A stretch of DNA of 36,609 nucleotides from a virus. Taxonomy: Duplodnaviria; Heunggongvirae; Uroviricota; Caudoviricetes. The position numbers and the translations under genes were made by a program. The stretch lies in IMG/VR virus record IMGVR_UViG_2698536401_000015. One strand, 5' to 3'. This document shows, piece after piece, positions 3,511 through 21,155 of the stretch; the stretch's first letter is position 1, and the number at the start of each line of letters is the position of its first letter. Below the pieces are notes generated by a model. The model had not been told where the DNA came from, did not search any database, and saw nothing but the letters and a program-made list of their open reading frames with translations.

Positions 3511-4043
3511 GCGCATTTGCGTAACTCCGATAACTCGTTAAAGCGTTCCATAAACATCCCGTAGGCATGGCCCGGTGCCAGTGGAATCACGTTGAACATC
3601 TCTGTTGCCGGGATACCTTCCAGTACAGGCCAGAAAGAGCCATCATCAAGCCCGAGATCGCGGCGTTCGGTTGCCAGCATGATGAGATCGGCATATTTCA
3701 CGGGCGTACTCATAACTGGGGGTAATCCGTATTTCTCACGGATTACGGAGTCTATTTTTTCTTCCATTTGTTTATAGTCAGGAAGAAGGCGTTTCAGTGG
3801 TGCGGGAATGTCCTGGCAATACGCTTCTGTTGCATCATGCATTAACGCTTCAAAAGCAAATTCCTGCGGCACCAGCTGGCTGCAAAGAACCGCATGTTGG
3901 GCGACGCTGTAGAAGTGCGAAAGATGACCGGCAAAGCGACAGATATTTGAAAGGGAAACCGCGATATCGTTAATATCGATGTCGTCTTTATTTATCCTGT
4001 CATAATAAAAATGCTTCCCGGAAAAAGTTTTAATAAATGACAT
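3507..4043 (-). CDS. YfdR-like HD-domain phosphohydrolase (putative 5'-deoxynucleotidase)
   Basis: Start at MSFIKT with a GGAGAA ribosome-binding site; H...HD motif (ALMHDATEAY); matches my recollection of CPS-53 YfdR. Confidence 0.7.
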   Translation of the reverse strand: MSFIKTFSGKHFYYDRINKDDIDINDIAVSLSNICRFAGHLSHFYSVAQHAVLCSQLVPQEFAFEALMHDATEAYCQDIPAPLKRLLPDYKQMEEKIDSVIREKYGLPPVMSTPVKYADLIMLATERRDLGLDDGSFWPVLEGIPATEMFNVIPLAPGHAYGMFMERFNELSELRKCA

Positions 4044-16595: not shown

Positions 16596-17078
16596 ATGCA
16601 GGTACTAAATTCCCAGCGTAAAGCTTTCCTCGATATGGTGGCATGGTCAGAAGGAACAGATAATGGGCGACAACCGACACGTAACCACGGTTATGACGTT
16701 ATTGTCGGTGGTGAACTGTTCACTGATTACTCCGATCACCCTCGCAAACTTGTCACGCTAAACCCGAAACTTAAATCAACAGCCGCAGGACGTTATCAGC
16801 TTCTTTCACGCTGGTGGGATGCTTACCGTAAGCAGCTTGGGCTGAAAGACTTCTCTCCAAAAAGCCAGGATGCTGTGGCATTGCAGCAGATTAAAGAGCG
16901 TGGTGCTTTACCGATGATTGATCGCGGCGATATCCGTCAGGCTATTGATCGTTGCAGCAATATCTGGGCGTCATTGCCGGGCGCTGGTTATGGTCAGTTC
17001 GAACATAAGGTTGACAGCCTGATTGAAAAATTCAAAGAATCGGGCGGAACGGTCAGAGAAATTCAGCTATATGAGTAG
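16596..17078 (+). CDS. R: endolysin, lambda R-like lytic transglycosylase
   Basis: Near-identical to lambda R as recalled ([55 protein letters not shown]); perfect AAGGAG ribosome-binding site. Confidence 0.9.
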
Positions 17079-17535
17079 AGTAACTGCGATTCTGTCCTCT
17101 CTGGTTATCTGCACCATCGTCTGCCTATCATGGGCTGTTAATCATTATCGTGATAACGCCATCGCCTACAAAGAACAGCGCGATAAAGCGAAGGAAAAAC
17201 TCAGCCAGGCGAACGCCACCATTACTGAGATGCAGCAGCGCCAGCGTGATGTTTCTGCGCTCGATGCGAAATACACCGGAGAACTTGCAAATGCTAAAGC
17301 AACTATTGAACAGCTTCAGCGTGATGTTGCTGTTGGCACTAAGCGGCTGTTCCTCGCCGCTAGTTGCCCGAGAGTGCAATCAACGACCATTACCACCAGC
17401 CTGGATGATGCTACCGCCCCCCGACTTACTGACGCCGCTCAACGGGATTATTTCACCCTCAGAGAGAGAATTGAAATCAGTTATAAACAGATAAGAGCAT
17501 TGCAGGAATATATCTCTAGTCAGTGTAAAAACTAA
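17071..17535 (+). CDS. Rz: i-spanin Rz
   Basis: Start MSRVTAIL with N-terminal TM segment, matches lambda Rz; overlaps the endolysin stop. Confidence 0.85.
17291..17494 (+). CDS. Rz1: o-spanin Rz1 (lipoprotein embedded in Rz in the +1 frame)
   Basis: Lipobox LLLALSGC followed by a proline-rich segment, entirely within Rz. Confidence 0.8.
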
Positions 17536-17544
17536 AATTGCTTT

Positions 17545-17575
17545 CGATGTATGGATCTGGACATCTTTTTTTTCT
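17545..17575 (+). terminator. candidate intrinsic terminator after Rz
   Basis: Short stem GATGT / ACATC with a 10-nt loop followed by a T8 run; weak stem, strong T-tract. Confidence 0.45.
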
Positions 17576-17616
17576 ACTATGCTGACTGAGAATTGAAACG
17601 TATATGGATATTCTAT

Positions 17617-18375
17617 ATGAAAAGAAAAAAATTAGAAGGTCCCGGGTGTGAATCATATGAAGGGTTAGATGTTGGATATTATATTGATTCCGAAACGGGG
17701 GAATTTAAAGCGGTTTATACATTCAATAATGAAATTGTAGATCGCATAAAATTGAGTGGGCGTATTGCCGATAGAGCATCTTCACTGTCCCTAATTCATA
17801 GGGACTTAAAAAGTGCTAAAGAGTGGTACCAAATAGCTAATGAACTGGCAGGGAGAAACGAATTAAGGACAGATGGCAAGTTATACGGGAATATACTTGA
17901 TCTAGATTTATCAAGTGAAATTAGAGCGTTATTTGTGGCAAGCCTAACGTTTTATGGTAAAGCTTTCTCTGAAGCTAAAGGGAGAAAGTTAAAGATGGAG
18001 CGTGATTGGCTTGATTCTGAATATTTTGGGTTGCATGACTGTATTATTAACTACAGGCATAATTTTGCAGCACATAGCGGCAACCAAGACTATGAGTCAG
18101 CAGAAACTTCATTGTTACTAATAAGGAAAAATGGGAAAACATTTTATCAAGCAGTGACAGATAGAAAACAACTGAGCATGATTGGTGTCGAGGACGAGCA
18201 TGTTAATATGATTAATTTATTTGAACATGCGATACAGGTTGTTGAGAAAAAATATAATGAAACATTAGAGAGAATTAGAACCTATGTCATGCAAAAGAGT
18301 TATTCTTTCTGGTGTTTAGCTGCCACAGGGAAAGATCCCGTCAATTTAGATAAGTTAAATAAGAAGAAAAAATAA
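17617..18375 (+). CDS. AT-rich cargo gene encoding a ~252-aa protein with an R-x5-H (HEPN-like) motif
   Basis: Markedly lower GC than neighbours, bracketed by terminators; motif YRHNFAAHSG fits the HEPN Rx4-6H signature. The track ORF begins at a TTG (17593); the first ATG is at 17617. Confidence 0.55.
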   Translation: MKRKKLEGPGCESYEGLDVGYYIDSETGEFKAVYTFNNEIVDRIKLSGRIADRASSLSLIHRDLKSAKEWYQIANELAGRNELRTDGKLYGNILDLDLSSEIRALFVASLTFYGKAFSEAKGRKLKMERDWLDSEYFGLHDCIINYRHNFAAHSGNQDYESAETSLLLIRKNGKTFYQAVTDRKQLSMIGVEDEHVNMINLFEHAIQVVEKKYNETLERIRTYVMQKSYSFWCLAATGKDPVNLDKLNKKKK

Positions 18376-18410
18376 ACCTACTCTTCACATTAGTAACATT
18401 AGTAGATGCT

Positions 18411-18442
18411 AAGCCACTAGCAATCGATGGTGGCTTTTTTAT
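18411..18442 (+). terminator. rho-independent terminator after the cargo gene
   Basis: Stem AAGCCAC / GTGGCTT with a 12-nt loop, followed by T6. Confidence 0.65.
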
Positions 18443-18454
18443 TGGAGCTTACCA

Positions 18455-18805
18455 ATGCCACCACGAACCCCAAAAGCCTGCCGTGTTCGCGGCTGCCGCT
18501 CTACAACCACAGACCCGTCAGGCTACTGCGAAAGCCACAAAAGCGAAGGCTGGAAGCAATACAAACCTGGACAATCCCGTCATCAGCGCGGTTATGGTTC
18601 GAAGTGGGATGTTATCCGCGTGCGTGTCCTGAAGCGTGACAAAGGCCTGTGTCAGCTATGTCTGCGTGCTGGTGTGGTGCGTGAGGCGAAAACTGTTGAC
18701 CACATCATCCCTAAAGCGCATGGCGGCACTGATGCTGACAGTAATCTGCAGAGTCTGTGCTGGCCGTGTCATAAGGCGAAGACGGCCCGTGAACGGTTGA
18801 AGTGA
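18455..18805 (+). CDS. HNH homing-type endonuclease (terminase-associated)
   Basis: 116 aa with Cys pairs and the HNH core (VDHIIPKAHGGTDADSNLQSLCWPCHKAK); immediately upstream of the terminase genes. Confidence 0.8.
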   Translation: MPPRTPKACRVRGCRSTTTDPSGYCESHKSEGWKQYKPGQSRHQRGYGSKWDVIRVRVLKRDKGLCQLCLRAGVVREAKTVDHIIPKAHGGTDADSNLQSLCWPCHKAKTARERLK

Positions 18806-18930
18806 TAATGATTCTCAACTGCCTGAGGGGAGGGGAGGGTCAAATCCCTGCGGCCTGACGTCTTCCGGACTGCCCGCCCCATCGTTTTTTTATACCCGCG
18901 AAAAATGAAATTTAACCAGGAGTGCCGCAT

Positions 18931-19425
18931 ATGGCTGGAACGGCGGGGCGTTCCGGGCGTCGCCCCAAGCCAACGGCGCGCAAGGCGCTGGCCGGAAACC
19001 CCGGCAAGCGAGCCCTGAACAAAGATGAACCTGTTTTTACGCCCATCAAAGGTGTTGAGCCACCGGAGTGGTTCGCTGAAGAAGATCTCCCTCTCGCCAC
19101 GATCATGTGGCAACTGACAACCAAAGAACTCTGCGGTCAGGGCCTGCTGTGCGTGACTGACCTCGCGGTGCTTGAGCGGTGGTGCGTGGCCTATGAGTTC
19201 TGGCGACGTGCCGTGAAAAATATTGCCAGACAGGGCAACACCATCACCGGTGCAATGGGCGGCATGGTCAAAAATCCGGAGCTGACCGCCAAAAAAGAAC
19301 AGGAGTCCGAGATGAGCAGCACGGGGGCAATGCTCGGACTCGACCCCAGCAGCCGCCAGCGTCTGATTGGCCTGGCGGGGAAGAAGAAAGCCACTAACCC
19401 GTTTCTGAAAATCATCGAATCATGA
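18931..19425 (+). CDS. terminase small subunit
   Basis: Start at ATG 18931 with AGGAG ribosome-binding site (the track begins at an upstream GTG); translationally coupled to the large subunit. Confidence 0.75.
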
Positions 19426-21155
19426 GCCGGAAATCTTACCCCAACGTAAATGCTGCCAATCAGTATGCCCGGGATGTCGTGCGCGGAAAGATTGTGGCCT
19501 GCCAGTTTGTGATTCAGGCCTGCCAGCGCCATCTTGATGACCTGATGGCGGAAAAAAGTAAGTCGTTTCGTTACCGCTTCGACAAGGACCTGGCTGAACG
19601 GGCCGCCAAATTTATTCAGCTGTTGCCGCACACCAAGGGTGAGTGGGCATTCAAGAGGATGCCCATCACGCTGGAGCCGTGGCAGCTCTTTGTGATCTGC
19701 TGCGCGTTTGGCTGGGTCAATAAAGGCTCCCGGCTGCGCCGCTTCCGGGAGGTGTATACCGAAATCCCCCGTAAGAACGGCAAATCAGCAATCTCTGCCG
19801 GTGTCGCCCTGTATTGTTTTGCCTGTGATAACGAGTTCGGCGCGGAAGTGTATTCCGGTGCCACGACGGAGAAACAGGCATGGGAAGTCTTTCGTCCGGC
19901 AAGACTGATGTGTAAACGCACACCCATGCTGACGGAAGCGTTCGGGATTGAAGTTAACGCCTCAAACATGAACCGTCCGGAGGATGGTGCGCGTTTTGAA
20001 CCGCTGATCGGTAACCCCGGTGATGGTTCATCACCCCACTGTGCGGTGGTGGATGAATATCACGAGCACGCCACAGATGCGCTTTACACCACGATGCTTA
20101 CCGGGATGGGGGCGCGACGTCAGCCACTGATGTGGGCTATCACTACTGCCGGGTACAACATTGAGGGGCCGTGCTACGACAAACGGCGGGAAGTTATCGA
20201 GATGCTCAACGGTTCGGTACCCAACGATGAACTGTTCGGGATCATCTATACCGTTGACGAAGGTGACGACTGGACCGACCCACAGGTGCTGGAAAAAGCC
20301 AACCCGAATATCGGGGTGTCGGTTTACCGTGAGTTTTTGTTAAGTCAGCAACAACGTGCGAAAAATAACGCCCGTCTGGCAAACGTCTTTAAAACAAAAC
20401 ACCTCAATATCTGGGTGTCGGCGCGTTCGGCGTATTTCAACCTGGTGAGCTGGCAGAGCTGCGAGGATAAGTCACTGACTCTTGAGCAATTCGAGGGGCA
20501 GCCGTGCATTCTGGCCTTTGACCTGGCGCGTAAACTGGATATGAACAGCATGGCGCGACTTTATACCCGTGAGATTGACGGTAAAGCGCATTACTACAGT
20601 GTGGCCCCGCGTTTCTGGGTACCGTATGACACGGTGTACAGCGTCGAGAAAAATGAAGATCGCCGGACAGCCGAACGCTTTCAGAAATGGGTGGAAATGG
20701 GCGTCCTGACCGTTACCGATGGTGCAGAGGTGGATTATCGCTACATCCTCGAAGAGGCCAAAGCGGCGAACAAAATCAGCCCGGTCAGCGAGTCACCCAT
20801 CGACCCCTTCGGGGCGACCGGGCTGTCACATGACCTTGCTGATGAAGACCTGAACCCCATCACCATTATTCAGAACTACACCAACATGTCCGATCCGATG
20901 AAAGAGCTGGAAGCGGCAATTGAATCGGGGCGCTTTCATCATGATGGCAATCCCATCATGACCTGGTGTATCGGCAACGTGGTCGGCAAAACTATTCCGG
21001 GTAACGATGATGTGGTGAAGCCCGTCAAAGAGCAGGTGGAAAACAAAATCGATGGTGCAGTTGCGCTGATTATGGCGGTTGGCAGAGCCATGCTGTACGA
21101 GAAAGAAGACACGCTGTCTGACCACATTGAGTCCTATGGGATCCGCTCGCTTTAA
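19422..21155 (+). CDS. terminase large subunit (ATPase and nuclease)
   Basis: 577 aa; position and size; Walker-A-like region; start overlaps terS stop (ATGA). Confidence 0.9.

Follow-up and report, generated by a model that had tools for sequence, protein, structure and literature searches.

A single AT-rich gene lies between the lysis and packaging genes of a tailed-phage genome, and the locus raises the question of what this gene encodes and whether it serves the bacterial host or the phage. The window, by which we mean the whole stretch of DNA analysed (36,609 nt; IMG/VR record IMGVR_UViG_2698536401_000015), reads from its sequence as an SfV/e14-like E. coli prophage, with tRNA and integrase followed by early region, Q, lysis genes, HNH, P27-type small terminase, large terminase, portal, HK97-type head genes and contractile tail. 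The lysis gene Rz (PF03245, E = 2.5e-40), which ends at 17535, and the HNH gene, which starts at 18455, enclose one ORF (Table 1). A first-pass annotation had placed a 252-aa gene here and taken it for an acquired, terminator-insulated cargo gene with a possible role in phage exclusion. The ORF is real: RefSeq carries the same ORF with the same start, as a 'hypothetical protein', in 23 complete E. coli genomes.

Table 1 Features of the cassette and its flanks (window coordinates).
Feature	Position	Strand	Basis or details
AT-rich 3' end of Rz (i-spanin) gene; left mosaic boundary of the module	17470–17535	+	GC 0.29 versus 0.50 in the rest of Rz
Weak hairpin GATGT...ACATC, then T8	17547–17575	+	5-bp stem with 2 G-C pairs, 10-nt loop
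252-aa ORF (stop included); predicted HEPN-superfamily protein, phrog_8440 member	17617–18375	+	250/252 identical to RefSeq WP_001407090.1
Codon of invariant H140, two helical turns before R147 in the same helix	18034–18036	+	56/56 in alignment A2
R147-H148-N149-F150-A151-A152-H153 codons, R-[H/N/D]-x4-H; predicted catalytic site	18055–18075	+	Family conservation; models
Intrinsic terminator, 9-bp stem, 8-nt loop, T-run	18411–18442 (hairpin 18411–18436)	+	−12.3 kcal/mol; 3' arm and T-run are conserved backbone upstream of HNH
HNH endonuclease gene, packaging module; right flank, outside the cassette	18455–18805	+	PF01844, E = 2.3e-16; HNH endonuclease annotation in SfIV, SfV and E. coli prophages

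The low GC content noted for the gene in the first pass is confirmed by measurement. The ORF has a GC content of 0.356 (GC3 0.31), against 0.56 for the HNH gene, 0.54 for terL and 0.517 across the window. The GC content of the 36.6 kb reaches its minimum here, with only 0.25% of 759-nt windows equally low. The gene also behaves as a moron, because its flanks are found in 3,598 of 5,426 complete E. coli genomes whereas the complete cassette is found in 23. Composition and distribution mark the cassette as cargo ('moron') gained by horizontal transfer and inserted where the lysis genes meet the packaging genes, an acquisition that the first-pass annotation had already proposed. In the prophage of E. 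coli D217-5, the Rz–HNH slot is filled by iss instead.

The limits of the cassette had to be redrawn. It had been set at 17536–18442; the AT-rich module runs instead from about 17470, inside the 3' end of Rz, to about 18430. Similarity to the iss-carrying prophage variant decays within 17470–17535, and homology with that variant and with SfIV-type phages resumes at the right junction, which falls inside the 3' arm of the terminator stem. Spacers of 81 bp upstream and 79 bp downstream surround the ORF, and an Rfam scan of the cassette found no RNA family. One Rz–cassette–HNH copy (H46, H54) lies at 81394–82785 of NZ_CP104632.1, a 100.9-kb non-mobilizable E. coli 'plasmid' record that may be a phage-plasmid or an episomal prophage.

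Elsewhere in the window, a tRNA gene at 1369–1441 (+; Rfam RF00005, 71.8 bits) adjoins a 387-aa ORF at 1459–2622 (−) that stands at the integrase position of the syntenic R12 prophage, and the junction of the two is presumably the prophage attachment site. A second cargo slot lies between antiterminator Q (13021–13386) and the holin gene. Its ORF at 13591–14586 (−; 331 aa, GC 0.43) encodes a ClpP-like SDH-type serine proteinase domain (PF01972, E = 1.9e-14) and has no PADLOC match, and in related prophages (L001, L002, L017) the slot holds other reverse-strand hypotheticals. Between the Q/late-promoter region and the holin gene there is also an IS3-family insertion sequence (15012–16132, −), with orfA at 15869–16132, orfB at 15012–15845 and an IS1222-type ribosomal frameshift element at 15785–15902 (Rfam RF00383, 156.6 bits); it is missing from the otherwise syntenic E. 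coli R12 prophage. This copy of the prophage could be defective, since the IS3 element may interrupt late-operon transcription. Inside Rz, in another frame, ORF 17150–17494 (+) carries a lipobox-like LLLALSGC; it probably encodes the Rz1 o-spanin, and translation would be confined to its C-terminal part.

The gene had been described as bracketed by intrinsic terminators, and this proved right on one side. The downstream hairpin with its T-run is the only terminator-like site called by a terminator scan of 16000–20000. The upstream hairpin we rejected as a terminator: its stem is 5 bp long, the scan did not call it, and it is absent from the minimum free energy fold of 17536–17585, a region that folds no better than its shuffles (z = −0.14). 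The downstream terminator is chimeric, with its 5' arm from the AT-rich cassette and its 3' arm and T-run (GGTGGCTTTTTTATTGGAG) from backbone sequence; the backbone part also lies upstream of HNH in iss-carrying prophages (L002, about 3950–3990).

On the + strand of 17536–17616 a scan, which weak or non-consensus promoters could escape, detected no sigma-70 consensus promoter. In lambdoid phages, Q-antiterminated transcription reads through intrinsic terminators. Because the ORF is co-oriented with the late operon, such transcription should pass both hairpins, so that the cassette could be called 'insulated' in the lysogenic state at most and not during lytic growth.

What the protein might be turns on the segment YRHNFAAHSG (residues 146–155; R147 at nt 18055–18057, H153 at nt 18073–18075), which had been singled out as an HEPN-like motif. 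In a single sequence this match is within chance, because 67% of shuffled versions of the protein contain at least one R-x(4–6)-H, and the motif is therefore significant only through its conservation in the family. The protein contains one R-x(4–6)-H match, and it falls on the most conserved columns. In alignment A2 (56 sequences, 19–50% identical to the query), R147 is found in all 56 sequences, H153 in 55, G155 in 54 and A152 in 53, and position 148 is occupied by H (32), N (20) or D (4) and by no other residue. Further invariant residues are H140, Y113, K115, R123 and D63. The motif noted in the first pass thus stands as a family feature, and not as a single-sequence match.

The family is large. 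Word-indexed searching yielded 197 relatives; an HMM search, run exhaustively, yielded 871 representatives (50% clustering), 436 of them at E ≤ 1e-10. Among the relatives listed, nearly all are stand-alone proteins of about 225–260 aa (shorter entries align with the profile over part of its length); none has been named or contains a Pfam domain. They come mainly from Proteobacteria, with single genome matches in Chloroflexota (Caldilineaceae), Ignavibacteriota and Acidobacteria, and among the PHROGs the family corresponds only to phrog_8440, 'unknown function'. The impression that the protein belongs to no characterised family was upheld: Pfam gave 0 matches for the query, and its scans of another 110 family members gave noise only; neither NCBIfam nor PADLOC matched the query, and PDB sequence searches with two family profiles returned nothing or noise. 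Split or truncated members occur in species-representative genomes, in Alcanivorax (L051 1210–1893, ORFs of 126 and 97 aa) and at two further loci (L055 7980–8339, 119 aa; L057 7911–8258, 115 aa). These copies suggest that the gene now and then decays to a pseudogene, which is what one would expect of cargo that is costly or toxic.

AlphaFold2 run on the family alignment gave a model (pLDDT 86.7, pTM 0.83) with an N-terminal beta-hairpin (17–36), helices at 49–80, 96–115 and 134–152, a long beta-hairpin (160–185) and a further helix at 198–225. R147 lies in the last two turns of helix 134–152, and H153 is the first non-helical residue (DSSP on the AlphaFold2 model). The AlphaFold2 model of a Pseudomonas homologue (31% identical; pLDDT 91.8) repeats this architecture: its R132 is in helix 119–137, and H138 comes directly after the helix. 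As predicted, then, the core is a four-helix bundle with R-[H/N/D]-x4-H at the end of helix 3, elaborated in the models by the N-terminal beta-hairpin and by the long beta-hairpin, which is inserted right after the motif. The best structural matches of both models are HepT/DUF86 toxins of MNT–HEPN systems (PDB 7ae2, 5yep, 1ylm). A Foldseek search against the PDB was uninformative (best E = 0.14).

The HEPN signature is Rx4–6H, in which the residue after R is 'mostly N, D or H' (Anantharaman et al. 2013, PMC3710099). The superfamily is further characterised by a four-helix up-down bundle, by dimerisation that juxtaposes two R/H motifs and by metal-independent RNase activity, and many of its families, although not all, have a second acidic residue in helix 2 (E-x3-[KR]) (PMC3710099). 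The predicted structures show a four-helix up-down core with the motif at a helix end, and alignment A2 shows a conserved R-x(4–6)-H with a polar residue after R. Helix 96–115 is without a conserved acidic residue, the invariant acidic residue being D63 in helix 1, and this counts against HEPN.

DUF86/HepT was the sole HEPN family compared profile–profile, using an alignment of 45 proteins, all carrying PF01934, that had been retrieved with a DUF86-like consensus as bait. The result of hhalign was not significant (probability 0.8%, E = 0.074); its single 22-column alignment pairs R147 with the DUF86 motif arginine, which we did not count as evidence. On motif conservation and predicted fold, the protein is probably a member of a new, previously unnamed family of the HEPN superfamily.

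Throughout the contexts examined, the family gene stands alone in varied mobile-element slots, with no conserved partner gene. It occupies an Rz-to-terminase-type slot beside three different types of lysis/packaging module (the window, L003 and L017): Citrobacter lambda-like prophages carry it between Rz and the Nu1/GpA terminase (50% identity), and the L017 prophage between Holin_3/GH19/LysC and HNH/TerL (59% identity). In Escherichia phage 2H10 the gene separates int from xis and runs against the neighbouring xis/early-left operon, and in Pseudomonas prophages it lies in early regions, counter-oriented to the surrounding lytic operons. A Vibrio inovirus carries it at its cargo end, where the depositors labelled it 'endonuclease', and in a Burkholderia chromosomal islet it adjoins a Tlde1 toxin. 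Its GC content is 10–18 points below that of the flanks in 8 of 9 loci. In Pseudomonas (L006–L009, 8766–9288, +), two small co-oriented ORFs (63–81 aa) without a Pfam domain follow the family gene; they are absent from the enterobacterial loci.

We surveyed 150 neighbour ORFs within 2.6 kb, at 30 loci from species-representative genomes, with PADLOC models. The neighbours included Lamassu LmuA (2.6e-108), LmuB (1.4e-150) and LmuC (4.9e-51), a CBASS cyclase and NucC, HEC-03A/B, PD-Lambda-3_B, NsnB and Abi_alpha, with a Ppl-like protein and a helicase as further candidates. In the Chromohalobacter locus L047, LmuB is the ORF immediately upstream of the family gene. The gene is enriched beside defence systems and in mobile cargo slots, an enrichment that is qualitative only, and its occurrence at varied positions in other prophages and next to known defence systems agrees with what the first-pass annotation had led one to expect.

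A defence role for this gene had already been flagged computationally by others. Table S10 of DefensePredictor, which gives predictions for 3,000 E. coli strains, has a row for WP_073313554.1 (252 aa, 'hypothetical protein') under cluster_id WP_001407090.1 (Science 2026, PMC13092281). The cluster has a mean log-odds of 8.21 (range 5.99–9.40), where the strict cutoff is 4, and is entered as predicted_defensive TRUE, 'Predicted novel defense gene' (PMC13092281). In that study, 45% of 94 cloned units were validated, at a rate that rose with the score; the cluster is absent from the cloned and validated units of Tables S6–S8, and its HHblits and Foldseek fields in Table S10 are empty, with no fold or mechanism proposed there (PMC13092281). 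This supplementary-table row is the only mention that a literature search found, the main texts naming neither WP_001407090 nor phrog_8440. As far as computation goes, the gene keeps its standing as a candidate for phage exclusion or abortive infection.

By analogy with HepS and Tha, we lean towards the view that members of this new HEPN-superfamily family are solo, prophage-borne abortive-infection RNases, and place it somewhat above an even chance. The protein would be made in an inactive form and, as in characterised HEPN proteins, would oligomerise, bringing two R/H motifs face to face. The signal for activation would come from an infecting phage, probably as a phage protein recognised by the beta-sheet elaboration, and the activated protein would act as a metal-independent RNase cutting tRNA, rRNA or mRNA. 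Translation would then halt and the infection would abort, leaving the lysogen population protected. The RNase chemistry, oligomerisation, trigger and abortive-infection phenotype of this scheme are modelled on HEPN families such as HepS and Tha. Against it stand the missing sequence-level link to any recognised HEPN family, the uninformative Foldseek search, the lack of the helix-2 acidic residue, the failure to detect a promoter upstream from which a lysogen might express the gene, and the 45% overall validation rate of DefensePredictor. One unlikely alternative is a helical-bundle protein that is non-catalytic or not an RNase (a regulator, a binding anti-defence or exclusion factor, or an enzyme acting on another substrate), in which the R/H pair would serve binding or a different chemistry.

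An HEPN-type RNase might also serve the phage itself, being expressed from the late operon on induction and degrading host or competitor RNA, whether for takeover or for inter-phage competition at burst. In three types of enterobacterial prophage the gene lies between Rz and the terminase genes and points the same way as the late genes, which would fit such a use, as would Q-antiterminated transcription passing intrinsic terminators where no independent promoter was detected. However, the gene is counter-oriented in Pseudomonas prophages and lies between int and xis, opposite to the xis/early-left operon, in 2H10, a layout characteristic of cargo expressed in the lysogen. Copies are also found away from recognisable phages, beside Lamassu and other defence systems, and the gene is dispensable, most related prophages being without it; we doubt that the phage's own use is the explanation. 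Quite improbable, in our view, is a distinct type of enzyme on an HEPN scaffold, with H140, R147 and H153 in helix 3, Y113, K115 and R123 in the helix 2–3 insert, D63 in helix 1 and a beta-sheet sensor subdomain. Deployed from the late operon, it would fire at the prophage's own induction or on a competitor's late proteins, on a substrate or with a trigger logic that would be new to HEPN defences. The best structural match, an HEPN toxin of an MNT–HEPN system, and the small co-oriented ORFs that follow the gene in the Pseudomonas loci could further be taken to indicate the prophage-stabilising toxin of a toxin–antitoxin or addiction module whose antitoxin, a small protein or RNA, has escaped recognition. 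Yet the 81 bp upstream and 79 bp downstream leave no room for a partner, the cassette holds no Rfam RNA, no MNT/NTase or other conserved neighbour recurs across the contexts examined, and the protein lacks the Y of the DUF86 RxxxxHxY site that is AMPylated in MNT–HEPN systems, all of which makes an addiction toxin very improbable.

Should the abortive-infection reading be correct, the HEPN superfamily would gain a widespread family (871 representatives at 50% identity), and the gene would join Tha and HepS as the third worked case in which one prophage gene encodes an HEPN nuclease for abortive infection. A name and a testable active site (R147/H153) would then be available for phrog_8440 and for a protein so far annotated only as 'hypothetical', and one of the thousands of DefensePredictor calls that await validation would have a mechanism. 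The late-operon position poses the question of how the prophage escapes its own nuclease on induction, a problem that HepS and Tha solve differently.

HepS (STM14_3211), from the Gifsy-1 prophage of Salmonella Typhimurium 14028, is a solo HEPN Abi protein that forms a tetramer, is activated by a siphovirus tail-tip protein and cleaves tRNA anticodon loops; it has Rx4H at residues 100–105, and its stand-alone homologues reach 250 aa (Nature 2026, PMC13043305). The HepS gene can be expressed on its own without toxicity. The spacer between R and H is 5 residues in the window protein versus 4 in HepS. LT2 Gifsy-1 (NC_010392) contained no ORF with R100-x4-H105, and the 2026 PDB sequence set no relative of the family profiles. 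GiPD474, another Gifsy defence protein, was set aside as unrelated, as it has an ATPase domain. Tha-1/Tha-2, a tail-activated HEPN system of S. aureus prophages, provides another precedent for solo prophage Abi (Nat Microbiol 2024, PMC11087260). In Tha the HEPN domain (R265-x4-H270) is C-terminal, the N-terminal region is disordered, and an antisense transcription unit encodes the cognate inhibitor Ith (PMC11087260); none of these features was seen in the window gene.

With HepT/DUF86 the window family shares a motif of the R-polar-x-x-x-H type at the end of the third core helix. HepT/DUF86 proteins are about 115–140 aa long, carry RxxxxHxY and have an adjacent MNT antitoxin gene (Pfam PF01934), whereas members of the window family are about 225–260 aa long, have Rx5H followed by S-G, carry beta-hairpin insertions and have no MNT neighbour. 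As a moron, the gene resembles bor and iss, which occupy the same Rz-to-terminase slot, are present or absent among related prophages, deviate in GC content and have a terminator of their own. However, the products of bor and iss are outer-membrane lipoproteins that confer serum resistance, and both genes run in the opposite direction, whereas the window gene, with no promoter in the consensus scan, is co-oriented with the late operon and encodes a product predicted to be cytoplasmic and enzyme-like.
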